Assembly (NCBI GenBank): GCA_050692915.1 | Contig: JBOGVU010000004.1 | Span: 1,968 to 65,967, forward strand | Direction: 5' to 3' | Length of the DNA stretch: 64,000 nucleotides | DNA from: Actinomycetota bacterium | GTDB lineage: Bacteria; Actinomycetota; UBA4738; CALAEC01 | Made by a program: the position numbers and the translations under genes | Notes under the pieces: model-generated | Databases searched by the model: none | What the model was told of the DNA's origin: nothing | Seen by the model: the letters and a program-made list of their open reading frames with translations, nothing else | Shown: positions 10,792 through 44,331 of the stretch, piece after piece | Numbering within the stretch: position 1 is the first letter of the stretch | Layout of the letters: every line of letters begins with the position of its first letter

Positions 10792-10797
10792 CCGTGG

Positions 10798-11739
10798 TTG
10801 CCGGCCCCAGGCCCCTCCAATAGACTCCCCAGCCGTCCCGATGACCTGGGCCGACGTCGAGCGAGACCAGACGCCGCGGCCGGGGGAGGCGTAGGCTCGC
10901 CCCGCTCCCGGCCCACCCGCGCCTTTCCCTCGTTGGCGGTGACCGCGTTCCTGCTCCTGGGGGGGGTCCTCCTCCTGCTCCCCCGGCCGGAGACCCCCAT
11001 GACCGTGGGACGGGCCAGCGCCGAGGTCGCCACGCTCGAGGACGGGCTGCTCACCGTGGGGGCCGCCCCCACCTCGCCGTACTCGTTCTCCGGACCGGGG
11101 GGGCCGACCGGGTTCGAAGTGGACATCGTCGTGGAAGTGGCCCGGCGGCTGGGGCTCGAGTCCCGGCTGGTGCTGGCTGAGGGGGACCCCTTCTCCTCGG
11201 TCGAGGAGGGCCAGGCGGACGTGGTCGTCGCCGGCGCCCCGATCACCGCGGAGCTGGAGAGCCGGGTGAACCTGTCCGAGCCGTACGTGCGGGTCCTCCA
11301 TGCGTTCGTGGTGAACGCGGACGCCCGACCGGACCTGACCGGGCTCGACGACCTGGCGGAAGGCGACGACGTGGCGGTGGTCGAGGGCTCCACCGGGCAT
11401 GCCTGGGCGATCTCGGCCCTGGAGCCCGAGGCGATCGAGGTCGGTCCGTACCCCGATGTCGAGGCCGCCGCCGTGGCGCTGGCCGCGGGGGCCGTGGACG
11501 CGCTCATCGTGGACGAGGTCCAGGCCATGGCGGCCACCGACGCCCGGGAGAGCCTTCGGATCCTGGAGACGGTCCCCACCGGGGCGGGCCTGGGCATCGC
11601 CGTCGACCCCCGCAACGGGGACCTGCTGACCGCCATGAACGAGGCCCTGGCGGACATGGCCGCGGACGGGACGTACGACCGGATCTACGACCGGTATCGG
11701 GCGGCCCTCCCGCCCGGGGGCCGGATCACCGCGGGGTAG
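10798..11739 (+). CDS. polar amino acid ABC substrate-binding protein (SBP_bac_3 family). True start uncertain: TTG 10798, or GTG 10939
   Basis: SBP_bac_3-like body (GFEVDIVVEVARRLGL…). Hydrophobic signal segment. G8 homopolymer at 10960-10967. Confidence 0.7.
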   Translation: MPAPGPSNRLPSRPDDLGRRRARPDAAAGGGVGSPRSRPTRAFPSLAVTAFLLLGGVLLLLPRPETPMTVGRASAEVATLEDGLLTVGAAPTSPYSFSGPGGPTGFEVDIVVEVARRLGLESRLVLAEGDPFSSVEEGQADVVVAGAPITAELESRVNLSEPYVRVLHAFVVNADARPDLTGLDDLAEGDDVAVVEGSTGHAWAISALEPEAIEVGPYPDVEAAAVALAAGAVDALIVDEVQAMAATDARESLRILETVPTGAGLGIAVDPRNGDLLTAMNEALADMAADGTYDRIYDRYRAALPPGGRITAG

Positions 11740-11743
11740 CGAC

Positions 11744-12790
11744 GTGGCCGGTCGGCCAGAGACCGAGGTCGTGGTGGTGGGGGCGGGCATCATGGGCTCG
11801 GCCACTGCGGCGGCGCTGGCCCGGGAGGGGCGAGAGGTGGTCTTGGTGGAGCGGTTCCGGGTGGGCCATCGCCGTGGGTCCAGTCACGGCGCCGCCCGCA
11901 TCTTCCGCTTCTCGCACCCGGACCCGCTGTACGTCGGCATGATGCAGGAGGCCCTCCCGTTGTGGCGGCGGCTGGAGGATGAAACGGGCGAGACGATCCT
12001 GACGGTGACCGGCGGTCTCGACGGGGGGAGCGGTCTGGAGCAGAACGCCGCGGCCATGGCGGCGCGAGGCGTGCCCTTCGAACGGATCGACGGGACCGAG
12101 GTGACCGCCCGGTTCCCGGCCCTGGCCGCCGAGCCCGGGGAGCCGTTCCTGTTCCAGGCGGAAGGGGGAATCGTTGCGGCCGACGTGGCCCTGCGGGCCT
12201 TCGTCTCCTCGGCGGTAGGCCGGGGAGCTGAGCTGGTGGAGGAGACGCGGGTGGTGGCCGTCAGGCCGGGGGACGACGCGGTAGAGATCGACACCGAGGA
12301 TGGGGCCTACCGGGCCCGCGGGGCCGTGGTGACGGCCGGGGCGTGGGCCAGGGGCCTCCTGACGCCGGCCGGAGTGGACCTCCCCGTCCGCCCCACGCGG
12401 GAGACGGTGGCGTACTTTCGGCTCGACGAGTCGCTCCCGGTCCCCACCCTGGTGGAGTGGGCCGACCCATTGGGCTACGCGCTCCGCAACCCCGGGCAGG
12501 GGATCAAGGCGGCCGAGCACCGGGTCGGCCCGGAGATCGACCCGGACGAGGAGGGCGGGCCGGACCAGGGGTCGGTGGCCCGGATCGGGTCCTGGATCCA
12601 TCGCCGGTTCCCGGAGGCCGACCCGGAGCCCCACCTCGTGGAGACCTGCCTGTACACGAACACCGACGACGAGTCGTTCGTCCTGGAGCGCCGGGGGCGG
12701 TTGGTGGTGGGGTCCCCGTGTAGCGGGCACGGCTTCAAGTTCGCCCCCCTGATCGGGGAGCGGCTGGCCGCCCTGGCCGGGGTGGGTTGA
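11744..12790 (+). CDS. FAD-dependent N-methyl amino acid oxidase (monomeric sarcosine oxidase / MTOX-like)
   Basis: GAGIMG dinucleotide-binding motif and a C-terminal CSGHGFKF motif typical of covalent-flavin MSOX family members. Confidence 0.8.
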   Translation: MAGRPETEVVVVGAGIMGSATAAALAREGREVVLVERFRVGHRRGSSHGAARIFRFSHPDPLYVGMMQEALPLWRRLEDETGETILTVTGGLDGGSGLEQNAAAMAARGVPFERIDGTEVTARFPALAAEPGEPFLFQAEGGIVAADVALRAFVSSAVGRGAELVEETRVVAVRPGDDAVEIDTEDGAYRARGAVVTAGAWARGLLTPAGVDLPVRPTRETVAYFRLDESLPVPTLVEWADPLGYALRNPGQGIKAAEHRVGPEIDPDEEGGPDQGSVARIGSWIHRRFPEADPEPHLVETCLYTNTDDESFVLERRGRLVVGSPCSGHGFKFAPLIGERLAALAGVG

Positions 12791-29199: not shown

Positions 29200-29477
29200 C
29201 CCTCTGACCGGGGATTCGGACACATCTGCCGGAGAGGGGTCCCTCCGCCGGAGGTCCGACTTGTTCACCCGACCGACAGCGGGTTAGGGTTCGTTTCCAT
29301 CCTCGAGCGCCCGCACCGGGAGGGAGCACGATCAGGATCGCTTGCCGTTCATGGCCCAACGCTTCCGCCGTTGTCCACGTGCGGTGCTTCCCTGAGTATC
29401 CGTCCCGGCCCAGGGATCCTCCGCCGCGAGCCCGAACAAGATTTCCGATGAACGTCGGTCGAACAAGGAGGAAGCGG

Positions 29478-31235
29478 ATGCACCGAAGGATGCGCACGAT
29501 CGTGCTCGTGGGCTCCATGGCCGGATTGCTCAGCTTGCCGTTGGCGGCGGCTGCGGAGCCCCCGCCGGAAGAGGTGAGCACGTTCGACTACACGCAGAAC
29601 ATGCACCCGATGGGTCATTCGGCCCGGATCCCCGTGGGCGGCAGGTTCAACTCGGACCTGGCCTTCTGGGGAAAGACCGCCTACCAGGGCACCTACGAGG
29701 GGTTCCGGATCATCGACATCACCGAGCGGGACAACCCGGTCGAGGTAAACAACTACGCGGAGTGCGCGCCCGGTTCGACGGCCGGGAACCAGGGCGACGT
29801 GATCATCTGGGATGACATCCTGGTCCGATCGTGGAATTCGAACACGGGGGCCGCCGGCAGCTCCTGTGACGGCGACTTCGTTCCGCCGGGGTTCGAGGGC
29901 CTGCACGTCTTCGAAGTCAGCGATCCATCCGATCCCGACCTGATCGCCTCGGTCGACCTCCCCCAGGGGTCGCACACCGCCACGGGCGTGCCGGACCTGG
30001 AGAACGACCGGCTGCTCGTCTACAACTCGGCCTCGAGCGGCGCGAATCCGGGGATCGACATCGTGGAGGTCCCCCTGGACGCGCCGGAGAACGCCGCGTT
30101 CCTCCGGTTCGAGCCGTCCGGCGATCCCACGATCGGCGGTGGGCTGCCGAACCTCGTGACGATCGATCCTCCGTCCTCGGCGGCGGGGGTCTACGGGGCG
30201 ACGGGGGCGGCTTTCGGGCCAGCGCCGACCTCCGGCGGCATCTCCGGCGACATCGAACTGGTCAACGACGGCGTCAGTACCCCGCCGGCCGGCACGCCCA
30301 CCGACGGATGCGAGCCGTTCACGCTGACGGCCGGGGCCATCGCGCTGATCGACCGGGGTACCTGCTCCTTCGTCCAGAAGGCGAGCAACGCGCAGGCGGC
30401 CGGGGCGTCGGCGGTCATCGTGGCCAACAACGTGCCCGGGGCCCCGATCACCATGGGGGGCTCCGACCCGACGATCACGATCCCATCGGTGATGGTGTCG
30501 CTGGACGACGGCAACACCATCAAGGCGGGCCTGCCGGCCCACGCCACCATCACCAGCCACCCGATGCCGCAGCGGTCCTGCCACGACACCGGGGTGATCC
30601 TGGGCGACGCCCTGAAGGCGGCCTGCGCCGGCGGGAACGGGCTCACCGTGTGGAGCATGGACCCCGCCGACGGCGGATCGCTGACCGACCCCCAGATCCT
30701 GTACTCCCGGGCGGTCGAAGGGGTGAGCATCGGGCACTCCGCGTCGTTCACCTGGGACGGAGAGACCGTGATCTTCGGGCACGAGCCCGGTGGTGGTGGT
30801 CAGGCGCAGTGCCAGGCGACGAGCCCTGAGGTCAACAAGACCATGTTCTTCTTCGATGCGGACACGGGAGACGAGGTCGGCCGCTGGGTGCTCCCACGGC
30901 CGCAGACGAACACGGAGAACTGCACGATCCACAACTACAACATCGTGCCCACCGCCAAGCGGGACGTGGTCGTCAGCGGCAACTACCAGTCGGGGATCAG
31001 CGTGGTCGACTTCTCCGACCCCGAGAACGCCGTGGAGGTGGCCTACGCCGACCCGGCCCCGCTCGTGCCCACGGCCACCGGTGGAGACTGGTCGTCGTAC
31101 TGGTACAACGGGATGATCTACGAGTCCGACATCACCAGGGGCTTCACCACCTGGCTGCTCAGCGACAAGGTGGTGGCCGGCGCCATGAAGCTCGGACACC
31201 TCAACCCGCAGACCCAGGAGTTCACCATCGGGTAG
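29478..31235 (+). CDS. secreted LVIVD-repeat beta-propeller protein with inserted PA (protease-associated) domain
   Basis: RBS AGGAGG precedes ATG 29478. Signal peptide. Repeated GFRIIDITERDNP / GISVVDFSDPENA blades. PA-like insert spans roughly 30090-30550. Tandem paralog of the next gene. Confidence 0.7.
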   Translation: MHRRMRTIVLVGSMAGLLSLPLAAAAEPPPEEVSTFDYTQNMHPMGHSARIPVGGRFNSDLAFWGKTAYQGTYEGFRIIDITERDNPVEVNNYAECAPGSTAGNQGDVIIWDDILVRSWNSNTGAAGSSCDGDFVPPGFEGLHVFEVSDPSDPDLIASVDLPQGSHTATGVPDLENDRLLVYNSASSGANPGIDIVEVPLDAPENAAFLRFEPSGDPTIGGGLPNLVTIDPPSSAAGVYGATGAAFGPAPTSGGISGDIELVNDGVSTPPAGTPTDGCEPFTLTAGAIALIDRGTCSFVQKASNAQAAGASAVIVANNVPGAPITMGGSDPTITIPSVMVSLDDGNTIKAGLPAHATITSHPMPQRSCHDTGVILGDALKAACAGGNGLTVWSMDPADGGSLTDPQILYSRAVEGVSIGHSASFTWDGETVIFGHEPGGGGQAQCQATSPEVNKTMFFFDADTGDEVGRWVLPRPQTNTENCTIHNYNIVPTAKRDVVVSGNYQSGISVVDFSDPENAVEVAYADPAPLVPTATGGDWSSYWYNGMIYESDITRGFTTWLLSDKVVAGAMKLGHLNPQTQEFTIG

Positions 31236-31460: not shown

Positions 31461-32864
31461 GTGAGAAGGAGAATCCGATGGTCCACGCTGGCCGTCTCCA
31501 TGACGGCCCTGGTGGCCGTGGGGGTGCCGGCGCAGGCCGACCATGCCACGCGGCCAAGCACCACGAACATCCATGCCCTGGGGCACAGCCCCCAGGAAGG
31601 GACGTTCAGCGTCCCCGATGGACAGCGGGTGATCAACTCCGACATCGCGTTCTGGGGAGACATCGCGTTCAACGGGAACTACAACGGGTTCCGGGTGATC
31701 GACATCTCCGCACCCGGGAACCCGAAGGAGATCTCCCACCCAGAGTGCAATGGTGACCAGGGCGACATCGTGGTCTGGGAGGACATCCTGGTCCGATCGT
31801 GGAACTCGCCGGCCCCGGCGGGACGGACCTGCGACGGTGAGCCGGTGCCGGTGGGCTTCGAGGGCGTGCACGTCTGGGACATCAGCGACCTCGACAACCC
31901 CACGCTGCTCACCGCGGTGGAGTTCAGCGCGGCGGGAGCGGCGCAGCGGGGCACCGCGGACGGCTGCGGCTCCCACACGGCGACGCTGGTCCCCGATCTC
32001 GAGAGCGATCGCCTGCTCGTCTACAGCAACAACTCGTCGGGTGCTGGTCGCCCAGTGTGCGACGCCATGGACATCATCGAGGTGCCCACGGACGATCCGT
32101 CCAGCGCCAGCCACATCGGCTACGTTCCGCTCACCGGCGGCTCGCTCGGCAGCAACAACGGCTGCCACGACGCCGGTGCGATCCTCGGAGACGTCAACAA
32201 GCTGGTGTGCGCCAGTGGCCACGCCGCGAACGTGTTCTCGATCGGCGCGCCCGGCGGTGGCACTCTCGAGAACCCACAGTTCCTCTACACGATCGAGGAA
32301 TCGGATGCGTTCGGGAACAAGGTCGGCATCGGGGGACGGTGGCACTCGGCCGGCTTCACCTGGGACGGGGAGGTCATCGTCCTGGGGTGGGAGCCTGGCG
32401 GTGGCGGCGCGGCAGAGTGCGAGGCCACGGACCCCGACATCAAGAAGAGCATGTTCTTCTACGACGCCGACACCGGGGCCAAGCTCGGCCAGTGGGTGCT
32501 CCCAAACCCGCAGGGGGCCGACGAGAACTGCACGATCCACGTCTACAACATCGTGCCCCTTCGGAGCGGCCGGTACGTCGCGGTGAGCGGGAACTACCAG
32601 GCCGGGACGTGGGCCACCGACTTCACCGACCCGGCCAACCCGGTCACGGTCGGCTGGTCCGACCCGCCCTCGCTCGGGCCCGGCCCCTTCTGCGGCGGGC
32701 AGTGCCAGATCGGCGGTGCGTGGTCGAGCTACTGGTACAACAACTTCATCTACGAGTCGGAGATCCAGGCCGGTCTGAACGTGTTCCGGCTGAGCGACTC
32801 CGCGACCGGCGGAGCGATCAAGCTGGATCACCTGAACCCGCAGACGCAGGAGTTCTCCCTGTAG
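31461..32864 (+). CDS. secreted LVIVD-repeat beta-propeller protein (paralog without PA insert)
   Basis: GTG start with upstream GAGGAGG. Colinear with paralog 1, including conserved Cys positions and the shared C-terminus LNPQTQEF. Confidence 0.7.
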   Translation: MRRRIRWSTLAVSMTALVAVGVPAQADHATRPSTTNIHALGHSPQEGTFSVPDGQRVINSDIAFWGDIAFNGNYNGFRVIDISAPGNPKEISHPECNGDQGDIVVWEDILVRSWNSPAPAGRTCDGEPVPVGFEGVHVWDISDLDNPTLLTAVEFSAAGAAQRGTADGCGSHTATLVPDLESDRLLVYSNNSSGAGRPVCDAMDIIEVPTDDPSSASHIGYVPLTGGSLGSNNGCHDAGAILGDVNKLVCASGHAANVFSIGAPGGGTLENPQFLYTIEESDAFGNKVGIGGRWHSAGFTWDGEVIVLGWEPGGGGAAECEATDPDIKKSMFFYDADTGAKLGQWVLPNPQGADENCTIHVYNIVPLRSGRYVAVSGNYQAGTWATDFTDPANPVTVGWSDPPSLGPGPFCGGQCQIGGAWSSYWYNNFIYESEIQAGLNVFRLSDSATGGAIKLDHLNPQTQEFSL

Positions 32865-32883
32865 CGTTCGCGGGCTGACGTTG

Positions 32884-32913
32884 GTGGGGGGTGGGCGCCG
32901 GCCCACCCCCCAC
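32884..32913 (+). terminator. perfect 13-bp GC hairpin (GTGGGGGGTGGGC-GCCG-GCCCACCCCCCAC)
   Basis: Perfect inverted repeat lying between the LVIVD paralog 2 stop and the amidohydrolase GTG at 32932. Confidence 0.5.
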
Positions 32914-32931
32914 GGCTATCCTCGTGCCGAG

Positions 32932-33972
32932 GTGACCACGGGGCGGCTGCTGGTTCGGGGGACGGGGGCCTGGATCGGCTCGGGCGAGGTCATCGAGGCC
33001 GCTGCCGTGGTCCTCGAAGGAACTCGGGTCACCTTCGCCGGTCCGGCCTGGGAGGCGCCCGAGGCGGACCGGCAGATCCGGGGCGACTGGTTCCTGATCC
33101 CCGGCGTCCTCGACCACCACGTCCACATCTGCCTGTCGGATCCGAGGGCGGTCCTCCGGGGCGGGGTGACGTTCGTCCGGGACCTGGCCTGGCCCGCCGA
33201 GGACATCTTCCCCCTGGCCGATATCTCCCAGGCCACGGACTTCGACGGTCCGGCCATCGCTGCGGCCGGCCCGATGATCACGGCTCCGGGAGGCTACCCG
33301 ACCGCCTCGGGGTGGGCGCCCGCCGGGACGGGGATGGAGGTGGCCGGGACGGACGAGGCGGCCCGGGCCGTGGCCCGGATCGCGGACCAGGACCCCGCTG
33401 TGATCAAGATCGCCCTCAACTCCGAGGCGGGGCCCACGCTCACCGACGGCGAGCTCCTGGCAGTATGCGACGCCGCTCACGAGCGGGGTCTGGCGGTGAC
33501 GGCCCACGTCCAGGGCCGCGGTCAGACGGAGCGGGCGCTTGGTGCCGGCGTGGACGAGCTGGCGCACTGCCCGTGGACCGAGCGGCTGGCCGATGACCTC
33601 GTCGAGGCCCTGGCCCGGACCGTGGCCGTGGTCAGCACACTCGACATCCATTCCTACGGGCGGGACACGCCGGAGCTAGGGACGGCCCTGGACAACCTCC
33701 GCCGGTTCGTGGCCGCCGGGGGGCGGGTCCGGTACGGAACCGACCTCGGCAACGGGCCCATCCCTCCCGGGATCCACGTCGGAGAGGTCCGCCACCTGGC
33801 CGAGGCCGGCCTCGACGCGGCCGCGATCCTGGGCGCCATGACGCTGTCACCTCTTCGGGAGGGGATCGAGGCCGACATGGTCGGGCTGGCCGGGGACCCC
33901 TTCGAGGATCTGGAGGCCCTGGGCCGGGTCCGCCTGGTGGTCCGTGGGGGCACGGTTCGGCTGGGCCCCTGA
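32932..33972 (+). CDS. metal-dependent amidohydrolase-family protein (alternative TTG start 32881 lies inside the hairpin)
   Basis: HHVH metal motif and TAHVQ…ELAHC, typical of the amidohydrolase fold. Confidence 0.75.
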   Translation: MTTGRLLVRGTGAWIGSGEVIEAAAVVLEGTRVTFAGPAWEAPEADRQIRGDWFLIPGVLDHHVHICLSDPRAVLRGGVTFVRDLAWPAEDIFPLADISQATDFDGPAIAAAGPMITAPGGYPTASGWAPAGTGMEVAGTDEAARAVARIADQDPAVIKIALNSEAGPTLTDGELLAVCDAAHERGLAVTAHVQGRGQTERALGAGVDELAHCPWTERLADDLVEALARTVAVVSTLDIHSYGRDTPELGTALDNLRRFVAAGGRVRYGTDLGNGPIPPGIHVGEVRHLAEAGLDAAAILGAMTLSPLREGIEADMVGLAGDPFEDLEALGRVRLVVRGGTVRLGP

Positions 33973-33983
33973 GCCCCGGTACG

Positions 33984-35324
33984 ATGCCGCCGATGACCGA
34001 CATCCCCAAGCCCCGCGTCGGGGTGGTGCTCGCCGCCGGGCGGTCCGAGCGGCTCCGGGCCGTGACCGGGGGCGGCTCGAAGGCGCTGGTCCGGCTGGGG
34101 GGCCTGCGACTGGTTGAGCGCGCCATCCGCACCCTGCTGACGAACGAGGTTGAGTTCGTGGTCGTCGTGGTCGGCTATCACGCCGGCCCGGTGGCCGCCG
34201 TGGCCCAGCGCGCCGCGCCGGGGCGGGTCCAGGTGGTGGAGGCCTCCGATTGGGAGGAGGGCAACGGGGCTTCGCTGGCCGCAGCCGAGCCCGTCCTGGG
34301 CGCCGAGCCAGGCTTCCTGGCCGTCAGCGCCGACCACGTGTTCGCCGAGGATGCCCTGGGGGACCTGACGAGGGCCGGCGGGCCGGCCGTCCTCGTCGAC
34401 CCCTCGCCGGAGCCGGAGGTGTGGAAGGAGGCCACCAAGGTCCGTATGGGGGCGGACGGGCGGGTGCAGGAGCTGGGGAAAGACGTGGACTCGCCCACGG
34501 TGGACGCCGGCGCCTTCCTCTTACCCCGGGAGGTGTTCGACGCGATCCGGAGGAGCAGGGCGCGCGGCGACGGGTCCCTGGCGGTGGCGGTGACCGAGCT
34601 CGGGAGAACCGTGCCGGTGGCCGCCGTGGCCATCCGGGCCGAGGCGTGGTGGCAGGACGTGGACACGCCCGAAGATCTGGCTCTGGCCGCCCGCAGGCTC
34701 CGGGCCGGCCTGCCCCGGCCCGGTGACGGCCCGGTGGCCCGGCTCTTGAACAGGCGCCTGTCGGTGCCGGTGTCCTGGCTGCTGGTCCGGTTCGGCCCGA
34801 ACCCGGACCTGCTGTCGGCGGCGGCGTTCGTGGTGGGGCTGGTGGCCGCGGCCTTCCTGGCCGCGGGTCTCGGGGTGGCCGGCGGCCTCATGGCCCAGCT
34901 CTGCTCGGTCCTGGACGGGGTTGACGGCGAGGTGGCCCGGCTTCAGCTCCGGGCCGGGCCCCGGGGGACCCTGCTGGACGGGGTCCTCGACCGACTGGGC
35001 GACGCGGCCATCTGCGCCGCCCTGGGCGTCTGGGCGTCTTCCGCAGGGACGTCCCCGGCCGTGGTGGTGGTCCTGGTGGCCGCGGCCACCACCGGAGCCA
35101 TGCTGTCTATGGCCACGAAGGACCGGGTGGCGGCCCTCGGCCTGGAGCCCCCCTCCGAGCGGCGGATCGGCTGGCTCCTGGGGGGCCGGGACGGCCGCCT
35201 CCTACTGATCGGGGTCCTTTCCGTGCTGGGGATGCCCCAGGCGGCCCTGGCGGCCACGGCCGGCACCTCGCTGGTCTCCGCGGCCATCCGGGTGTCGTTC
35301 GCCCGGACCGTCCCACCGTCCTGA
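33984..35324 (+). CDS. bifunctional nucleotidyltransferase / CDP-alcohol phosphotransferase (IPCT–DIPPS-like)
   Basis: N-terminal [12 protein letters not shown] and EEGNGASL nucleotidyltransferase motifs. C-terminal membrane domain carries the D-G-x2-A-R-x8-G-x3-D-x3-D signature ([10 protein letters not shown]…[13 protein letters not shown]). Confidence 0.65.
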
Positions 35325-38219: not shown

Positions 38220-38223
<4 letters not shown>

Positions 38224-39824
38224 GCCGCCGGGTCTGTGATAGAACACGTCCCGCTGTGCTGAGTCGGCTCGTGCCCGTCCTGGGCATCATCGCGCTGGTG
38301 GCCACGGCCTGCGGTTCGCCCGACATCGTGGTCCGGTCCGGGGAGCCCGAGGGACCCTCGTGGTTCTCGCTGGTGGTGGACTCGACCGGCGATGCCGGGG
38401 CGGGGCTCTCGTTGGCCACGGACGCCGACGGCAACCCCCACCTGGCCTACGTGGCCCTGGAGGAGGAGGTCGAGGGGGAGGCGCCCGCGCCCGACCCGCT
38501 GGCTCCCACGCTCCCGGCGGTGATGCACGCCCACCTTGTGGGGGAAGCCTGGACCCGGGGACCGGTGGCCGAGGAGCAGGAGCTCGACGGGGCGTCGGAG
38601 ACGGCCATCGCCGTCGGCGCCGACGGGGTGCACCACGTGGCCTGGACCGCCGGCGGCCAGGTTCTCTACTCGTCGAACGCCGGCGGCGAGTTCGCCGAGG
38701 AGCGGGAGACGGTGGCCGACATCGGGGCCGTGGGCTTGTCGATCGCCGCCGACGGGGACGGGACGCCCCTGATCGCGTTCCAGACCGCCCTGGATGAGGC
38801 CGAGGGCCCAGCCTCGCTGATCAGGCTGGCCACGCCGGAAGGCGAGGGAGCCTGGACGCTGGAGACCGTGGCGGAGGCGTCCGCGCCGGAGGAGCCGGCC
38901 GGCACGGCGGTCGTCGTCACCCCCGACGGGCCGGTGGTGGCGTTCGGGTCCGACGGGGCCACGCTGGTGGGGGAGCGGCGGGGCACGCGGTGGTTCAGCG
39001 AGACCGTGGACGAGGACGGCGGCGTGGGGATGGCGGGTTCCCCCGACGCCGACGGGAACCCTCACCTGGCGTACCTGACGGGGACCGGCGACGTCAAGCA
39101 CGCCCACTCGATCGATGGCGGGCCGTGGGACGTCTCCGACGTCGGCTCGGGGGCCACCGGCTCCCCGGCCTCGATCGCCCTGGACGCCGAGGGAGTCCAC
39201 CAAATCGCCTGGCAGACCGCCGACGGACTGGCCTACGCCTCGAACGCCGGTGGAGACGAGTTCGCCGAGGAGGAGCTGCCCGCCTCCACGGCCGAGGGCG
39301 TCCGGCCCAGGGTGGGCGCCGGCGCCGACGGGACCGTGTACGTGGCCTTCCGGGACGAGAGCGACACCGAGGTCCAGATGGCCGTCCGCAGCGAGGACGC
39401 CCCCCTCCTGGCGGTGCCCGCCCCCGAGGAGGCTGCGGGCGGCGGGGGTGCCGGGCCGCCGACCGGCCCGCCCCCCTGTGAGCCGGAGGGGACCGAGCTG
39501 GCCATCACCGCCCCGCCCGGAGGGGCGGGAACCGGGTTCGACACGGATTGCTTGGCTGCTCCGGCCGGCGAGGCCTTCACGATCGAATTCGATAACCAGG
39601 ACGACGGAGCAGCCCCGCAGACCCACAACGTCGCCATCTACACAGAACAGCCTCCAGCGGGGCAACCTCTGTTCCAGGGAGAGATCTTCCCCGCACCGGC
39701 CGCAATGACCTATGAGGTCGACCCCATCGACGAGCCCGGCAACTACTTCTTCCAGTGTGACGTTCACCCGACCACCATGACCGGGACGTTCGTGGTAGCC
39801 GTCGCAGACGGCGAAGGCGGCTAG
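38220..39824 (+). CDS. lipoprotein: 7-bladed beta-propeller fused to C-terminal cupredoxin (type-1 Cu) domain
   Basis: Lipobox LVATAC. Seven ~45-aa repeats of the form xDxDGxPH(L/I)A(Y/W/F). C-terminal copper ligands His…Cys-x2-His-x3-Met ([10 protein letters not shown]). GTG 38220 overlaps the uvrA stop; alternative GTG at 38256. Confidence 0.65.
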
Positions 39825-39886: not shown

Positions 39887-41761
39887 GTGACCGACGACAT
39901 CCCGAGACCGGACCCGGCTTCTGTCCCCGACGCCCCGGGGGCGTACCTCTTCCGTGACCGTGACGGCCGGGTCATCTACGCGGGGAAGGCCAAGTCCCTC
40001 CGGAAGCGGCTGGGCGCGTACTGGGGCCGTCCCCTCCATCCCCGGACCGAGGCCATGGTGGAGGCGGCCGACCGGGTCGAGTGGATCGTGGCCTCCGGCG
40101 AGGTGGACGCCCTCCACCTCGAGTACAACCTGATCCAGGAGCACCGCCCTCGGTTCAACGTCCGGTACCGGGACGACAAGTCGTATCCGTACCTGGCGCT
40201 CACCGTGGCCGAGCGGTGGCCCCGGGCCATGGTGACCCGGTCGAAGCGGCGGAAGGGCATGCGGTCGTTCGGCCCGTACGCCCACGCGTACGCGATCCGG
40301 GAGACCCTGGACGCCCTCACCCGGGTGTTCCCCGTCCGGACCTGCTCGAACGGCTTCTTCGACCAGCGGCGCCGGGCCGGCCGGCCGTGCCTCTACTACG
40401 ACATCGGCCGGTGCGCCGGGCCGTGCGTGCCGGAGAAGACCGGCGTGACCGATGAGGGATACCGCGAGCACGTGGACCGGCTGGCCGACTTCCTGGCCGG
40501 AAACCACCGTCCCATCCTCCGGGAGCTGGAGGTGGAGATGCGTTCGGCCTCCGCGACCGAGGAGTACGAGAAGGCCGCCCGGTTCCGGGACCGCCTCACT
40601 GCCGCCGGGAAGGCCATCGAGTCCCAGGAGATGGTGCTGTCCCAGCGGGAGAACCTCGACGTGATCGGGCTCGACGAGGACGATCTGGAGGCGGCGTTCC
40701 AGGTGTTCTTCGTCCGGCGGGGCCGGGTCACCGGCCGCCGGGGCTGGGTGGTGGACCGGGTCGAGGATCTCGACGCGCCGGCGCTGGTGTCCTCGTTCCT
40801 GGAGCAGCTGTACATGGAGCGCGACGAGGTCCCCGCCCGGGTGCTGGTGCCGGTGTGGCCGCGGGACCGCGATGTACTGGAGGAGTGGCTGTCCGGTCGC
40901 CGGGGAAGCGCCGTGCGCATCGCCCTCCCGGAGCGGGGGGACAAGCGTCGCCTCCTCCAGGTGGTGACCACCAACGCGAGGGAGGCCTTCCTCCGCCACA
41001 AGCTGAAGCGGGCCTCGGACTTCGCGGCCCGATCCCGGGCTCTGGCCGAGCTCGGCGAGGCCCTCGGGCTGGCCCAGCCGCCGCTGCGGATCGAGGCGTA
41101 CGACGTTTCGAACATCGGTCCGACGGCAACCGTGGGCTCGATGGTGGTGTTCGAGGACGGCCTCCCGAAGCGCTCCGACTACCGCCGGTTCGAGATCAAG
41201 GGCGTCCCCGGGCAGGACGATATCGCCTCCATGGAGGAGATGCTCCGGCGGCGGTTCACCCGGTACCTCAGGGAGCTAGACGAGCCGGTGGCGAAGCGGC
41301 GCCGGTTCGCCTACCCGCCCTCGCTGGTCGTGGTGGACGGCGGGCGGGGCCAGCTGAACGTGGCCCTCCGGGTCCTGGATGAGCTCGGCCTCGATGTCCC
41401 CGCGATCGGCCTGGCCAAGCGGCTGGAAGAGGTGTACCTACCCGGGCAGCCGGAGCCGCTCCGGATAGGCCGGGGCTCGGAGGCGCTGTTCGTCCTCCAG
41501 CACGTCCGGGACGAGGCCCACCGGTTCGCGGTCGACTACCACCGGCGGCTCCGGGAGCGCCGGGCCATGGCCTCGCCGCTCGACGAGGTGCCGGGGATCG
41601 GCCCGGCCAGGAAGAAGGCCCTGCTCCGGCAGTTCGGCTCGCTGGCCCGGCTGGCCCGGGCCTCGGAGGAGGAGATCGCGGCCACCCCGGGGGTGGGCCC
41701 CCGCCTGGCCGCCGAGGTCGCGTCTCGCCTCCACCGGCCTTCCGAGGCGGCCTCGGCGTGA
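39887..41761 (+). CDS. uvrC: excinuclease ABC subunit C
   Basis: GIY-YIG N-terminus (GAYLFRDRDGRVIYAGKAKSLRKRL), UVR domain, and C-terminal RNase H-like and HhH regions. Confidence 0.9.
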   Translation: MTDDIPRPDPASVPDAPGAYLFRDRDGRVIYAGKAKSLRKRLGAYWGRPLHPRTEAMVEAADRVEWIVASGEVDALHLEYNLIQEHRPRFNVRYRDDKSYPYLALTVAERWPRAMVTRSKRRKGMRSFGPYAHAYAIRETLDALTRVFPVRTCSNGFFDQRRRAGRPCLYYDIGRCAGPCVPEKTGVTDEGYREHVDRLADFLAGNHRPILRELEVEMRSASATEEYEKAARFRDRLTAAGKAIESQEMVLSQRENLDVIGLDEDDLEAAFQVFFVRRGRVTGRRGWVVDRVEDLDAPALVSSFLEQLYMERDEVPARVLVPVWPRDRDVLEEWLSGRRGSAVRIALPERGDKRRLLQVVTTNAREAFLRHKLKRASDFAARSRALAELGEALGLAQPPLRIEAYDVSNIGPTATVGSMVVFEDGLPKRSDYRRFEIKGVPGQDDIASMEEMLRRRFTRYLRELDEPVAKRRRFAYPPSLVVVDGGRGQLNVALRVLDELGLDVPAIGLAKRLEEVYLPGQPEPLRIGRGSEALFVLQHVRDEAHRFAVDYHRRLRERRAMASPLDEVPGIGPARKKALLRQFGSLARLARASEEEIAATPGVGPRLAAEVASRLHRPSEAASA

Positions 41762-42663
41762 CCGCCCAGCCGGCCAGACGGGAGGAGCCTCGCCGGCTCC
41801 CCACCGGGCCCCAGTTCACCCTGATCACCGGCCTGTCAGGGGCCGGCCGATCGGAGGCGGCCAAGTGCCTGGAGGACCTGGGGTTCTTCGTGGTTGACAA
41901 CCTGCCCCCGGCGCTGATCCCGAAGATGGCCGAGCTCGTGGAGGCCACCGGCGGTCCCCAGCGGGTGGCCATCGTGGCCGACGCCCGCGGCGGGAAGTTC
42001 TTCGGTGACCTGGCCAACGCCCTCGACGTGCTCAGGCAGCGGCGGATCGCCACCCGGATCCTGTTCCTGGAGGCCTCGGACGAGGTGCTGGTCAGCCGGT
42101 TCGCCGAGACCCGGCGGAAGCATCCACTGGCCCCGGAGGACCGGCGTGAGGAGGGGATCCGCCGGGAGCGGGCCATCATGGAGGCCCTCCGGGGCGAGGC
42201 CGACCTGGTCATCGACACGACCGGGCTGACCCCGAACGAGCTCCGGGAGCGGGTCCGGGACGCCTTCTCCAAGGCCCCCCCGGAGGCCGGCCTCCAGGTG
42301 GCGGTGGTCTCGTTCGGCTACAAGTTCGGTGTTCCCCGCGATGCAGACGTCGTGCTCGATGTGCGGTTCCTGCCCAACCCCTACTGGATCGACTGGCTCC
42401 GGTCTCTCCCGGGGACCGAGGCCCCCGTCCAGAGGTTCGTGACGGGCCAGCCCACGTACGCCGAGTTCATGAGCCGCCTCCGGGGGCTCCTCGACTACGT
42501 GCTCCCGGGGTTCATGGCAGAGGGGAAGTCGTACCTGACCGTGGCGGTGGGGTGCACCGGCGGGCGCCATCGGTCGGTGGTTGTGGCCGAGGACCTCCTG
42601 GCGTACTTCCGGGAGAAGGGCCTGCCGGTGACCCGAGATCACCGCGACATCGGCCGGGACTAG
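41758..42663 (+). CDS. rapZ: RNase adapter protein RapZ (YvcJ family P-loop NTPase)
   Basis: Walker A GLSGAGRS. Conserved position downstream of uvrC. Confidence 0.85.
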   Translation: MTAQPARREEPRRLPTGPQFTLITGLSGAGRSEAAKCLEDLGFFVVDNLPPALIPKMAELVEATGGPQRVAIVADARGGKFFGDLANALDVLRQRRIATRILFLEASDEVLVSRFAETRRKHPLAPEDRREEGIRRERAIMEALRGEADLVIDTTGLTPNELRERVRDAFSKAPPEAGLQVAVVSFGYKFGVPRDADVVLDVRFLPNPYWIDWLRSLPGTEAPVQRFVTGQPTYAEFMSRLRGLLDYVLPGFMAEGKSYLTVAVGCTGGRHRSVVVAEDLLAYFREKGLPVTRDHRDIGRD

Positions 42664-42678
42664 GTACGCTCCTCACCC

Positions 42679-43260
42679 GTGAGCCGCGCCCTGGCGCTTG
42701 CGCTCGTCGCGCTGACAGTGGCGTGCGACGGGCCTGACGGTGGGTCGGGGCCGTCGGATGCCGGCGGCTCCGGTCTGGCCCCGGTGGTGCTCCGGGCCGG
42801 CGAGGTCCCCGAGGGGCTGGAGCCGGACCAGGCCGGGCCGATCGCGTCGATCCGGGACGTCCTGCCCCTGAGGCGGCGGTTTCCGAACCTCCCCCCGCTC
42901 GCGGACGGGCTCGCGGAGGGGTTCGTGGAAGGGTACCGGCGATCGTTCGCCGGCCCCGACGGCGCGGCGTCCTCCACGGTGGTCCGCATGGCTGACCCGA
43001 CGGTCGCCTCGGCCCTGGTCGCCTACCTCCGGCTGCTCCCGGTGGGGGGGCACGCCGGGACGCCAGAGGAGGTGCCGGCCACCGGCCTCGGGGAGAAGGG
43101 GTACGGGTGGCGCCTCCTGGTCCCCCGGCGCGAGTCGTCCGGCTACGTGTGGCGGTCGGGCGACCTGGTGGCCGCGGTGACGCTCAGCGGCCCGGTGGGC
43201 CGGGCGAACCCCGAGGCCTCCCTACCCCTGGCCGAACGGGTGGACGAACGCCTGGCCTGA
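42679..43260 (+). CDS. hypothetical lipoprotein (occupies the place of yvcK/whiA)
   Basis: GTG start. Lipobox LTVAC. Confidence 0.5.
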   Translation: MSRALALALVALTVACDGPDGGSGPSDAGGSGLAPVVLRAGEVPEGLEPDQAGPIASIRDVLPLRRRFPNLPPLADGLAEGFVEGYRRSFAGPDGAASSTVVRMADPTVASALVAYLRLLPVGGHAGTPEEVPATGLGEKGYGWRLLVPRRESSGYVWRSGDLVAAVTLSGPVGRANPEASLPLAERVDERLA

Positions 43261-43326
43261 GCTCGGTCGTGGGCGTGAAGGCCCGGCGGGTAGGATGGAC
43301 CGCGAGACCACAAGGAGGCGGCGACG

Positions 43327-44331
43327 ATGACGGTGAAGGTCGGTATCAACGGCTTCGGAAGAATCGGCCGTAACTTCTTCCGGGCGGCCAAGCGCCAGGG
43401 TGCGGACCTCGACTTCGTGGGGGTGAACGACATCACCGATGCGAGGACCCTGGCTCATCTGCTGAAGTACGACTCGGTGCTTGGGACCCTCGACGCGGAC
43501 GTCGGCGTGAGCGACGAGGGGATCCGGGTGGACGGCGACGAGCTGAAGGTGCTGGCCGAGCGAGACCCGGCCGCGCTCCCGTGGAAGGAGCTGGGCGCGG
43601 AGATCGTCATCGAGTCGACCGGGCTGTTCACGGACCGGGAGAGCGCCCAGAAGCACCTGGAGGCCGGGGCACAGAAGGTGATCGTCAGCGCCCCCGCGAA
43701 GGGTGATGACATCACGATCGTCCTCGGCGTGAACCAGGATGACTACGACCCGGCCACCCATCACGTGATCTCCAACGCTTCCTGCACCACGAACTGCGTG
43801 GTCCCCATGGCCAGCGTCGTCGAGGAGGCCTTCGGCATCGACCGGGCCCTGATGACCACGTGCCACGCGTACACGAACGACCAGAACCTGCTCGACCTGC
43901 CTCACGAGGACCTCCGGCGGGCCCGGGCCGCGGCCATCAACATCGTGCCGGCGAGCACGGGGGCGGCCAAGGCCACCTCTTTGGCCATCCCCAAGCTCAA
44001 GGGGAAGATGGACGGCATGGCATTCCGGGTCCCGGTGCCGGTCGGCTCGGTGACCGACCTGGTGTGCCTCCTGGAGCGGGAGGCCACGGTCGACGAGATC
44101 AACGAGGCGTTCCGGACAGCCGCCGAGGGCCGCCTCCAGGGCATCCTCAAGTACACGGAGGACCCGCTGGTCTCCTCGGACATCGTGGGGGACCCGCACT
44201 CGTGCGTGTTCGACGCGCTCTCCACGATGGCCATCGGGAACATGGTCAAGGTGATCGGCTGGTACGACAACGAGTGGGGCTTCTCGAACCGGCTCGTGGA
44301 GCTGACCGAGCTGGTCGCCTCGAAGCGCTGA
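43327..44331 (+). CDS. gap: glyceraldehyde-3-phosphate dehydrogenase
   Basis: [14 protein letters not shown]-binding motif and ASCTTNC active site. Confidence 0.95.

Follow-up and report, generated by a model that had tools for sequence, protein, structure and literature searches.

This locus raises the question of whether a gene that joins a nucleotidyltransferase domain to a CDP-alcohol phosphotransferase domain enables a member of the Actinomycetota to synthesize di-myo-inositol phosphate (DIP) or a related compound. DIP is regarded as a solute of thermophiles. Among Actinobacteria it has been reported for Rubrobacter only, and Gaiella occulta lacks the DIP genes (PMC6741124). Our comparisons indicate that the encoded protein is probably a new member of the IPCT/DIPPS kind, belonging to a divergent branch without a characterised member.

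Gene and domain architecture

The gene was found in the list of open reading frames at positions 33984..35324 (+ strand) of the window, by which we mean the whole 64-kb stretch of DNA analysed here. It encodes a protein of 446 aa, and its ATG start codon lies 11 nt past the stop codon of the upstream gene. An identical protein (P0001) is encoded on the NCBI MAG contig CCZJNT010000046.1 (assembly GCA_973786495.1). Three Pfam domains, each exceeding its gathering score, were detected in the protein: NTP_transf_3 (PF12804, residues 13-131, E 3e-17), NTP_transferase (PF00483, residues 13-238, E 2e-8) and CDP-OH_P_transf (PF01066, residues 274-378, E 1.2e-7). The nucleotidyltransferase domain is N-terminal and the CDP-alcohol phosphotransferase domain C-terminal, an order colinear with that of structure 4MND, the characterised bifunctional IPCT/DIPPS of A. 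fulgidus (locus tag AF0263). A phmmer search aligned residues 13-415 to residues 43-424 of the 4MND chain (E 2e-41), and the same structure was the first-ranked Foldseek match of the AlphaFold2 model (mean pLDDT 85.5) over its full length (E 1.4e-20, TM 0.66/0.71).

An earlier note on this DNA had described a fusion in the archaeal N-to-C order carrying the motifs GxxLAAGxSxRL, EEGNGASL and DGx2ARx8Gx3Dx3D. The domain order agrees with this description, and all three motifs are present in the open reading frame, the first at residues 13-24, the second at residues 91-98, and the third preceded by D311, which completes the eight-residue signature of CDP-alcohol phosphotransferases. The note had also named AF_2299 as a characterised IPCT/DIPPS; this was a misnomer, since that name belongs to another CDP-alcohol phosphotransferase (4O6M); the right structure for comparison is 4MND. 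The proteome encoded in the window is acid-shifted.

The N-terminal cytidylyltransferase domain

The IPCT-like cytidylyltransferase domain spans approximately residues 13-239 (34020..34700, + strand; PF12804 and PF00483). Its best matches in the PDB were the IPCTs of A. fulgidus (2XME, 77 bits, E 1.9e-20) and T. maritima (4JD0, 52 bits, E 7.8e-13), compared with 28 bits for RmlA, 23 bits for MurU, 19 bits for LicC and an E value above 0.1 for GlmU. A closer similarity to MobA or GlmU-like enzymes, which according to the earlier note would speak against an IPCT, was not found among the NCBIfam models either: those of the MobA/GlmU type reached at most about 70 bits (Arch_glmU 71 bits, MocA 44 bits, no more than 29 bits for GlmU models) versus 192 bits for the IPCT/DIPPS model.

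R23, K33 and D117 of the fusion protein align to the catalytic Arg, Lys and Asp of IPCTs and are invariant within its clade. The catalytic residues of the T. maritima enzyme were taken from a published list (PMC12275187), in which the Asp is D112; the Asp aligned to that of the fusion protein is chain residue 117, which would be native residue 109 by an offset of eight residues inferred from R16 and K26, and the conserved Asp itself is unambiguous. The T. maritima IPCT aligns to the N-terminal domain over 223 residues and shares with it, besides the catalytic residues, the loop R-x-V-T-G-x-x-x-K, which the A. fulgidus IPCT lacks. It differs in not being fused to a transferase, and identity is only about 25%. 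Homologous IPCT domains with 30-38% identity are also found in the stand-alone IPCTs of MIPS-IPCT operons (BEPIS-type) in Rhodothermales, Balneolales and Bacteroidota. When these MIPS-linked stand-alone IPCTs were compared with archaeal IPCT/DIPPS proteins, 33 positions were invariant, 29 of which are kept by the fusion protein and just 21 by the validated T. maritima IPCT. The COG1213 cytidylyltransferases also cover enzymes for phosphocholine, phosphoglutamine and phosphoglycerate (PMC12275187), and because substrates vary within this group, an identity of around 30% does not fix the substrate.

The membrane domain and its acceptor pocket

The two domains are connected by a linker and juxtamembrane helix (approximately residues 240-269; 34701..34790, + strand), modelled as helical between residues 250 and 268. 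Its conserved residues D248, G249, N256, R257, S260 and S264 are invariant in the archaeal and the actinobacterial clades alike. The DIPPS-like CDP-alcohol phosphotransferase domain that follows (approximately residues 270-446; 34791..35321, + strand; PF01066) has six transmembrane (TM) helices, which the AlphaFold2 model places at residues 274-293, 297-320, 326-353, 358-384, 402-414 and 418-442, with nothing C-terminal to them and the model ending at residue 446. A six-TM architecture without C-terminal extension has been described to go with soluble acceptors, a criterion resting on eukaryotic enzymes (PMC4634129). As an argument for excluding a lipid acceptor we demoted the helix count to weak evidence, since small CDP-alcohol phosphotransferases (~230-250 aa) also adjoin IPCT-like genes in other phyla, and one of them (locus L058) stands between IPCT and MIPS.

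The CDP-alcohol phosphotransferase signature, which lies on TM2-TM3, was read from the sequence at 34914..35003 (+ strand) as D311xxD314G315xxA318R319...G328xxxD332xxxD336, followed by R337 and D340. All eight residues of the signature (D1xxD2GxxAR...GxxxD3xxxD4) are present and invariant among 24 clade members, and the motif aligns to D68, D71, G72, A75, R76, D89, D93 and R94 of the PIP synthase of M. tuberculosis (MtPIPS). Searched alone against the PDB, the membrane domain matched AF2299 with 70.6 bits, AfDIPPS with 61 bits and RsPIPS with 44 bits. AF2299 (4O6M/4O6N/4Q7C) is a CDP-alcohol phosphotransferase whose physiological substrates have, to our knowledge, not been established. It resembles the fusion protein in the motifs DG-x-DGE-x-ARL, LDGVLDR and RDxRL and in its two-domain shape (Foldseek TM ~0.6/0.78), but its cytoplasmic domain showed no sequence-level match to the N-terminal domain, the alignment beginning only at residue 228 of the fusion protein, and it carries A, D and F at the positions of S375, K379 and R381.

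These last three residues, located in TM4, belong to a predicted inositol-phosphate acceptor pocket (35106..35294, + strand; aligned to MtPIPS) together with R402-D-G-R405 (the RxxR motif in TM5) and R436 in TM6. The pocket residues of PIP synthases have been mapped by experiment (PMC4634129, PMC6506517); our definitions come from these PIPS papers, and all residue arguments are alignments. In such an alignment, seven out of seven inositol-phosphate pocket residues of MtPIPS are identical in the fusion protein (R94=R337, S132=S375, K135=K379, R137=R381, R152=R402, R155=R405 and R195=R436), and all seven counterparts are clade-invariant. At the positions of the lipid-donor groove, by comparison, the fusion protein has Gly and Asp (G312 and D403) in place of M69 and P153 of MtPIPS. 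AfDIPPS and AF2299 agree with it in this, and the donor is on these grounds more likely a soluble CDP-alcohol.

The acceptor region departs from archaeal DIPPS at otherwise invariant positions (Y to M376, E to K379, Y/F to R381, K to G401 and E to G404), reading S-M-A-T-K-D-R and G-G-R-D-G-R where the archaeal IPCT/DIPPS proteins read S-Y-T-S-E-K-Y and G-K-R-D-E-R, and in the alignment the TM6 Arg is one helical turn off the archaeal one. Actinobacterial PIPS proteins (M. tuberculosis PgsA1, 6H53; R. salmoninarum PIPS, 5D92) have the six-TM fold, the signature and the seven pocket residues in common with the fusion protein, including the counterparts of K135 and R137 that archaeal DIPPS lack, whereas they lack a cytidylyltransferase domain, and their donor is the lipid CDP-DAG. 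Judged by these alignments, the acceptor pocket appears to mix features of DIPPS and PIP synthases. In Verrucomicrobiota and Acidobacteriota, the split transferases encoded next to IPCT have neither an Arg behind D4 nor the second of the two RxxR arginines.

Family assignment and phylogeny

The A. fulgidus IPCT/DIPPS (4MND; 2XME/2XMH for the IPCT domain by itself) and its orthologues in Thermococcales (NF041135) share with the fusion protein the domain order, a colinear alignment of about 400 residues and the predicted fold. They also share the catalytic Arg, Lys and Asp of the IPCT domain, the eight-residue signature with the Arg after D4, the RDxR motif, and six TM helices plus the juxtamembrane helix, although identity is only about 28-32%. 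At 53 of the 107 positions that do not vary among the IPCT/DIPPS proteins of Archaeoglobales and Thermococcales, the actinobacterial clade is fixed for the same residue, compared with an overall identity of about 30%. The hosts differ, the archaeal proteins being from hyperthermophilic archaea and the actinobacterial clade from high-GC, apparently non-thermophilic bacteria. The fusions retrieved from Nitrososphaerota and Thermoproteota carry an additional C-terminal region of 166-203 aa with about four predicted TM helices, which the fusion protein lacks.

The best NCBIfam model for the protein was the IPCT/DIPPS equivalog NF041135 with 192 bits, the next families reaching 71 bits or less, among them PIPSynth with 52 bits versus a cut-off of 170 bits. 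NF041135, which was built on Thermococcales, has a cut-off of 580 bits that was not reached. In a calibration, a partial AF0263 scored 622 bits, the proteins of Ca. Alkanophaga and Ignisphaera came to 359 and 203 bits, and signature-degenerate fusions of other phyla scored 243-256 bits, i.e. above the protein studied here; we therefore dropped the NCBIfam score as a classifier. Falling short of the 580-bit cut-off rules out the status of an equivalog and is compatible with IPCT/DIPPS activity.

A first homologue search yielded 1211 matches, of which the best 120 were all fusion proteins with at least 58% identity. Strong purifying selection acts on the fusion protein across a large clade: in an alignment of 24 of its members, whose identity to the query is 57-86%, mean column identity was 68%. 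A strain titled 'Terrabacter sp. 28' (locus L017) has a homologue of 57% identity. A search with AF0263, by comparison, returned only Archaeoglobales and Thermococcales among its best 120 matches. In a neighbour-joining tree, calculated without support values and without the DIPPS of Rubrobacter, Thermotoga and Aquifex, the actinobacterial proteins formed a deep clade of their own, and the sole characterised anchor (AF0263) fell into another clade. Near the query, a genome scan, an exhaustive search of representatives and two cluster look-ups recovered proteins from MAGs only, with no cultured or characterised anchor. Most of these relatives come from MAG collections that we presume to be soil surveys (SMAG and MFD isolate names) and not from hot environments. 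The clade is widespread among uncultured Actinomycetota that are apparently non-thermophilic.

Genomic context

The fusion gene is preceded at a distance of 11 nt by a gene of the amidohydrolase family (32881..33972, + strand; PF01979). This pair is kept in several related loci (L001-L003, L010, L014, L081 and L082) and absent in relatives of 48-60% identity, and the lineage of the window alone keeps the order amidohydrolase-fusion-uvrA within a uvrB...uvrC-rapZ-gap-pgk block. At the loci of other relatives the fusion gene is a loner among unrelated neighbours. We rejected the amidohydrolase as a pathway partner because it is conserved within the lineage only and its best family match is of the Xaa-Pro dipeptidase type. 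Genomic context was likewise rejected as a functional clue, as the neighbours outside this lineage are unrelated.

The earlier note had stated that the inositol-1-phosphate synthase (MIPS) is not in the window, and this was borne out: a Pfam scan of about 50 ORFs covering the 64-kb window revealed no PF07994, PF01658 or PF00459, the domains of MIPS and IMPase, and tblastn with genuine MIPS gave no match in the window at E <= 10. Comparison was extended to seven related neighbourhoods (L080, L081/L082, L083-L087 and L017), whose genes were Pfam-annotated or Pfam-scanned, and to 84 loci by tblastn. In the seven neighbourhoods neither MIPS nor IMPase nor any further inositol gene was present within 8-10 kb of the fusion gene. 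MIPS directly followed by a stand-alone IPCT was detected at 11 loci, in other phyla only. These BEPIS-type IPCT genes are unfused and directly behind MIPS, in contrast to the fusion gene, which was near MIPS at no locus examined. The Rhodothermales MIPS-IPCT pairs showed no CDP-alcohol phosphotransferase within 10 kb.

Proposed function and alternative explanations

On sequence grounds we consider it reasonably likely that the protein is an IPCT/DIPPS-type enzyme with two activities, which would turn CTP plus inositol-1-phosphate into CDP-inositol and combine this with a further inositol-1-phosphate to the precursor of DIP. The cytoplasmic N-terminal domain would form CDP-inositol from L-myo-inositol-1-phosphate and CTP. 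The six-helix membrane domain would then transfer the phospho-inositol moiety to a second inositol-1-phosphate with release of CMP and formation of di-myo-inositol-phosphate phosphate (DIPP), with Mg2+ presumably bound by D311, D314 and D332 and D336 serving as the putative base. DIP, which is an anionic and soluble compatible solute, would finally be formed from DIPP by an unlinked phosphatase. What the protein and its model show is the two-domain layout, the fold, the residues of catalysis and of the signature, and an acceptor pocket that agrees residue by residue with inositol-phosphate sites mapped by experiment. From these we infer what both substrates are, that other parts of the genome encode the phosphatase and MIPS, and which physiological role the product has. 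The CDP-inositol and DIP-type chemistry suggested by the earlier note is sustained in part. Every sequence and structure comparison that was run agrees with a fusion of an IPCT-like and a DIPPS-like domain; the support is limited in that the 580-bit threshold is missed widely and the protein falls into a deep clade of its own, that a part as osmolyte or thermoprotectant is conjecture and most relatives are presumably from soil, that CDP-inositol is also a lipid donor (BEPIS; PMC4587543, PMC9246714), and that the reference protein was misnamed.

A clearly less probable alternative is that the same fold makes another soluble phosphodiester. The N-terminal domain would then use a different phospho-alcohol, for example glycerol phosphate, phosphoglycerate or some other cyclitol phosphate, or else something other than inositol-1-phosphate would be the acceptor. 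The product would in that case be a related solute, for instance glycero-phospho-inositol phosphate, or a novel compound. The varied substrates of COG1213 (PMC12275187) would fit this explanation, as would the depth and separateness of the clade, the lack of MIPS linkage at every locus examined and the slightly greater similarity of the membrane domain alone to AF2299 than to AfDIPPS (70.6 versus 61 bits). The N-terminal domain, however, is far nearer to validated IPCTs than to other solved nucleotidyltransferases and keeps 29 of the 33 IPCT-wide positions. The pocket also differs from archaeal DIPPS at M376, K379, R381, G401 and G404, but these departures go toward the state of PIP synthases, which themselves bind inositol-1-phosphate.

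Synthesis of a CDP-inositol-dependent lipid seems improbable to us. Here the N-terminal domain would supply CDP-inositol and the membrane domain would produce an inositol phospholipid from diacylglycerol, dialkylglycerol or ceramide, as in the BEPIS of Rhodothermus or a proposed alternative pathway of Bacteroidetes. CDP-inositol has been proven to donate the head group of lipids in bacteria without DIP (Jorge et al. 2015, summarised in PMC4587543), and the product of the Rhodothermus CDP-inositol pathway is a lipid and not DIP (PMC4587543); a similar route has been proposed in PMC9246714. Because CDP-inositol also serves lipid synthesis, IPCT homologues are not diagnostic of DIP. The fusion protein is moreover membrane-embedded, and inositol lipids are abundant in Actinobacteria. 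On the other hand, its pocket contains in the alignment the full cationic set that binds the phosphate of inositol-phosphate in PIP synthases, and the model shows no extra C-terminal TM helices (the criterion of PMC4634129, derived from eukaryotic enzymes). The arrangement typical of this lipid pathway, consisting of MIPS, stand-alone IPCT and a separate transferase, was seen in other phyla only, and the split transferases next to IPCT genes in Verrucomicrobiota and Acidobacteriota are those in which the Arg behind D4 and the second RxxR Arg are missing. Very improbable, finally, is a PIP-synthase-like enzyme making phosphatidylinositol phosphate from CDP-diacylglycerol and inositol-1-phosphate, with the N-terminal domain serving, like that of AF2299, only as a cap in the cytoplasm with a structural or regulatory task. 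In its favour, K379 and R381 bring the acceptor pocket closer to PIPS than to DIPPS, Actinobacteria need PI and the cytosolic domain of AF2299 has been called 'cytidylyltransferase-like' (PMC4634129). Against it, the catalytic residues of the N-terminal domain are all kept and strictly conserved, as one would not expect of a mere cap, the acyl groove positions for CDP-DAG (M69, P153) are Gly and Asp, and similarity to PIPS (29-44 bits) is below that to DIPPS and AF2299 (61-71 bits).

Possible roles and significance

If the protein acts as an IPCT/DIPPS-type enzyme, we would conjecture a role of its product as an osmolyte or thermoprotectant. Osmoprotection rather than heat protection may be the role, because the proteome of the window is acid-shifted and the sources of the relatives are apparently non-thermal. 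A precedent for such a fusion outside hot habitats, though an archaeal one and with an IMPase gene nearby, is the fused IPCT/DIPPS of deep-sea Thaumarchaeota, whose transcription takes place at about 2 degrees C and which has been read as part of a piezolyte or osmolyte pathway (PMC7265257). It is conceivable, if somewhat doubtful, that the large actinobacterial clade makes DIP or a close inositol phosphodiester in non-thermophilic Actinomycetota of soil and saline habitats, and that DIP is a widespread bacterial solute for osmotic or desiccation stress instead of a marker of high temperature. In that case DIP would have been overlooked so far because its producers are mostly uncultured.

Should the clade be active, DIP-type solutes would reach many uncultured, apparently mesophilic Actinomycetota, with consequences for what soil and saline metagenomes are taken to say about osmolyte and desiccation strategies. 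The PIPS-like acceptor pocket would be a natural intermediate if solute-making CDP-alcohol phosphotransferases evolved from lipid-making ones, as has been proposed. If the product were instead a lipid or a different phosphodiester, the fusion protein would represent a new head-group pathway in Actinobacteria. Activity of the clade would also settle a problem of naming. The NCBI name is 'NTP transferase domain-containing protein' only, and the JGI annotation of the clade proteins switches between 'IPCT/DIPPS' and 'choline kinase/PGP synthase'.

Gene, domains and nearest structures

The fusion gene lies exactly where the earlier note had placed it, at window position 33984..35324 (+), with its ATG 11 nt past the stop codon of the upstream gene, and encodes a protein of 446 aa. 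The three motifs quoted there were all found, the GxxLAAGxSxRL-type motif at residues 13-24, EEGNGASL at 91-98 and the DGx2ARx8Gx3Dx3D-type motif at 314-336; D311 precedes the last of these and completes the eight-residue CDP-alcohol phosphotransferase signature D1xxD2GxxAR...GxxxD3xxxD4. Pfam recognized both domains with scores above gathering (NTP_transf_3 and NTP_transferase at 13-238, CDP-OH_P_transf at 274-378). This fusion pattern is not due to chance, since the identical protein is also present in one NCBI MAG, a first search gave 1211 matches, the best 120 of which were all fusion proteins with at least 58% identity, and an exhaustive search of 1.84 billion representatives gave 212 matches below 1e-30.

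The best solved-structure match was 4MND, the bifunctional IPCT/DIPPS of A. fulgidus, which was colinear with residues 13-415 (E 2e-41) and bore out the claimed archaeal domain order. AF_2299, previously named as a characterised IPCT/DIPPS, was the wrong reference, as the PDB lists 4MND as the IPCT/DIPPS and 4O6M as 'AF2299, a CDP-alcohol phosphotransferase'. An AlphaFold2 model built on 24 members of the actinobacterial clade was confident (mean pLDDT 85.5); besides an alpha/beta domain it has one juxtamembrane helix and six TM helices, and the chain ends at residue 446. In the PDB, Foldseek gave 4MND as the top match along the entire chain (TM 0.66/0.71), followed by the T. maritima IPCT 4JD0, AF2299 and the A. 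fulgidus IPCT 2XME.

Among NCBIfam models the IPCT/DIPPS equivalog NF041135 scored best with 192 bits, all other families reaching at most 71 bits. We calibrated its cut-off of 580 bits with known and related fusions. The validated A. fulgidus enzyme, represented by 382 of its residues, scored 622 bits, fusions from Ca. Alkanophaga, Nitrososphaerota and Ignisphaera 359, 235 and 203 bits, and those of Latescibacterota and Gemmatimonadota, in which the signature Arg is gone, still 243-256 bits. By NCBI's definition the query protein is therefore no equivalog, and the bit score was dropped as a classifier at this distance because signature-degenerate fusions outscore it. We also drew a descriptive neighbour-joining tree (about 150 family members, no support values), in which the actinobacterial proteins formed one deep clade, and the only experimentally anchored sequence fell into a separate archaeal clade. 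A search seeded with AF0263, the A. fulgidus IPCT/DIPPS, gave only Archaeoglobales and Thermococcales among the best 120 matches listed. Cluster look-ups on the nearest representatives (n=2, 35-48% identity) returned nothing but MAG proteins with generic names.

Cytidylyltransferase domain

Searched alone against the PDB, the N-domain placed the two crystallised IPCTs on top (2XME 77 bits, 4JD0 52 bits), compared to 28 bits for RmlA, 23 for MurU and 19 for LicC. A closer kinship to MobA or GlmU-like enzymes, which the earlier note had regarded as evidence against its reading, was not found, with 44 bits for MocA and at most 29 bits for GlmU models. Residues R23, K33 and D117 align with the catalytic Arg, Lys and Asp of the T. 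maritima IPCT (PMC12275187) and are invariant in the clade. We further defined as IPCT-wide those positions that do not vary within either of two independent sets and carry the same residue in both. One set was 25 archaeal IPCT/DIPPS from DIP-producing genera, the other 11 stand-alone IPCTs whose genes lie immediately behind one for inositol-1-phosphate synthase (MIPS). The query keeps 29 of these 33 positions and the validated T. maritima IPCT 21, a match to be read with the caveat that the comparison sets held IPCTs only and that the COG1213 cytidylyltransferase family also includes phosphocholine, phosphoglutamine and phosphoglycerate enzymes (PMC12275187).

Membrane domain and predicted product

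An alignment of fusions from many phyla split the membrane domains into three types. Type A keeps the signature complete, with Arg as the residue following D4, and shows RDxR on TM5; besides the query and its clade it includes AF0263, Thermococcales, Ca. Alkanophaga and several further proteins from archaea and bacteria. In the second type, seen in Latescibacterota, Gemmatimonadota, Myxococcales and Bradymonadia, there is an insertion at TM4-5 and two arginines are missing, the one following D4 and the second one in RxxR; most members outside Myxococcota are also without the signature Arg (A[T/K/V/I]L). The third type, split enzymes adjoining IPCT-like genes in Verrucomicrobiota and Acidobacteriota, is likewise missing the Arg that follows D4 and the second RxxR Arg.

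The inositol-phosphate site has been mapped experimentally in the PIP synthases of M. tuberculosis and R. salmoninarum to R94, S132, K135, R137, R152, R155 and R195, with R94 described as conserved among inositol-phosphate-using enzymes (PMC4634129, PMC6506517). HMMER and MAFFT aligned these residues with R337, S375, K379, R381, R402, R405 and R436 of the query, so that its predicted pocket is identical at all seven positions, which are invariant in the 24-member clade alignment. About half of the positions invariant in 25 Archaeoglobales and Thermococcales enzymes (53 of 107) are fixed identically in the actinobacterial clade, evenly split across the two domains. The changes relative to archaeal DIPPS concentrate in the acceptor region (Y to M376, E to K379, Y/F to R381, K to G401, E to G404). 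Since K379 and R381 are in the PIP-synthase state, the acceptor pocket looks like a DIPPS/PIPS hybrid; the acceptor common to both enzymes is inositol-1-phosphate.

From these comparisons we consider it rather probable that the protein is a genuine IPCT/DIPPS-type enzyme making CDP-inositol and then DIPP. The cytoplasmic domain would convert CTP and L-myo-inositol-1-phosphate to CDP-inositol, the membrane domain would transfer the phospho-inositol of CDP-inositol to a second inositol-1-phosphate, yielding DIPP, and an unlinked phosphatase would convert DIPP to DIP. Synthesis of a related soluble phosphodiester from a different donor or acceptor is the less likely reading to which the deep separate clade, the altered acceptor pocket and the substrate diversity of the family would lend themselves. 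A CDP-inositol-dependent lipid synthase has a precedent in Rhodothermus and has been proposed for Bacteroidetes (PMC9246714), but is distinctly unlikely here given a cationic pocket for the acceptor and an architecture with six TM helices: six-TM enzymes use soluble acceptors and lipid-acceptor enzymes have three or four extra helices (PMC4634129), and the model of the query has six TM helices and no extension. A PIP synthase with a non-catalytic cap is highly improbable, as the N-domain active site is intact and the acyl-groove residues for the lipid donor are absent (M69 and P153 of PIPS are G312 and D403 in the query, with AfDIPPS and AF2299 alike).

Distribution and habitat

The architecture and chemistry of an IPCT/DIPPS-type enzyme are already known, and the JGI pipeline labels many of these proteins IPCT/DIPPS, NCBI labels being generic. 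The novelty is modest and consists of a large uncharacterised actinobacterial clade below the equivalog threshold, whose acceptor pocket resembles that of PIPS and whose hosts appear not to be thermophilic. Many of the relatives belong to MAG collections that, judging from the SMAG and MFD isolate names, we take to be surveys of soil, not of hot springs. The 38 predicted proteins of the window are acid-shifted ((D+E)/(K+R) = 1.39, median pI 5.2), several secreted solute-binding proteins among them with a calculated pI of about 4, and so hint at a saline or alkaline-saline habitat. Within Actinobacteria, Rubrobacter is the only known source of DIP, and Gaiella occulta lacks the genes (PMC6741124). 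Cold deep-sea Thaumarchaeota carrying fused IPCT/DIPPS genes represent a precedent outside hot habitats (PMC7265257). One relative with 57% identity, 'Terrabacter sp. 28' (L017), is titled as a strain and not as a MAG.

Related fusions and split systems

Fusions from Nitrososphaerota, Thermoproteota, Bathyarchaeia, Ignisphaera and Zestosphaera (~10001-11940 in most of L035, L041, L043, L044 and L051; 7715-9607 in L047) carry a C-terminal extension of 166-203 aa with about four extra predicted TM helices and no Pfam match. As extra C-terminal helices go with lipid acceptors (PMC4634129), these 'IPCT/DIPPS' proteins may have a function other than DIPPS. Second-type fusions (L024-L027, L029-L034, L036-L038, L040 and L069; ~10001-11430 in most loci) outscore the query on the equivalog model. 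In Verrucomicrobiota and Acidobacteriota (L050, L052, L057, L059, L060, L065, L068, L072 and L076; 10001-13200) a stand-alone IPCT-like gene lies beside one or two small CDP-alcohol phosphotransferase (CAPT) genes or is followed by a gene for an 820-890-aa multi-TM protein with a terminal CAPT domain, with no MIPS gene near the IPCT-like genes of these nine loci. In some lineages the IPCT-CAPT core is probably joined to further domains, as several representatives that share 39-47% identity with the query have a far greater length (P0123 834 aa, P0162 699 aa, P0192 735 aa, P0220 741 aa, P0252 768 aa).

Genomic context

With polA, rpsA, coaE, uvrB, uvrA, uvrC, rapZ, gap and pgk, the window represents an actinobacterial housekeeping region of high GC content (~70%). 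The order amidohydrolase-fusion-uvrA is kept within the window's own lineage, and in relatives at 48-60% identity the fusion gene lies in unrelated, variable neighbourhoods. The reported lack of MIPS in the window held up in Pfam scans of about 50 ORFs and in tblastn with genuine MIPS at E <= 10. The Pfam scans likewise found no inositol monophosphatase (IMPase) in the 64 kb, and neither gene was found in the flanks of any fusion locus examined; the absence holds for this one window and carries no information on the whole genome. In three neighbourhoods with no other resemblance to each other (L083 12163-13650; L085 1-982 and 7016-7684; L087 12367-13035), genes of PHP-domain (PF02811) or PF04185 phosphoesterases are no more than 8 kb away from the fusion gene; they might encode the missing DIPP phosphatase, or their presence may be a coincidence.

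MIPS was directly upstream of stand-alone IPCT genes only, in Rhodothermales, Balneolales, Bacteroidota and a few others; in Rhodothermus this arrangement is the one described for the pathway to CDP-inositol lipids (BEPIS; PMC4587543). Ten loci (L046, L048, L053, L054, L061, L062, L066, L070, L073 and L078) from Rhodothermales, Balneolales, Bacteroidota, Fodinibius and one deltaproteobacterial MAG have a tight pair, with the MIPS end at or overlapping the IPCT start. A CDP-alcohol phosphotransferase could not be detected up to 10 kb from these pairs, and the transferase of this pathway is therefore encoded elsewhere. A Desulfosudis MAG (L058) is arranged differently, its MIPS being about 2.7 kb downstream of IPCT and separated from it by a small CAPT-like gene.

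The interval between rapZ and gap (41758-44331) holds a single 193-aa ORF with no Pfam match (42679-43260). The yvcK-whiA pair usual in classical Actinomycetes is missing from this interval, which suggests a deep-branching actinobacterial lineage as the source of the window. Between uvrB and the amidohydrolase-fusion-uvrA unit lie genes for two LVIVD-repeat proteins (29379-31235 and 31461-32864, both +) that are paralogous and probably secreted, one of them having a PA domain; they are also present in L002, L003 and L014, and replaced by a PPK2 gene in L081. A gene at 38220-39824 (+), between uvrA and uvrC, encodes an acidic protein of 534 aa with a cupredoxin-like domain at its C-terminus; the position of this gene is kept in the lineage with 46-52% identity in L003, L014 and L081.
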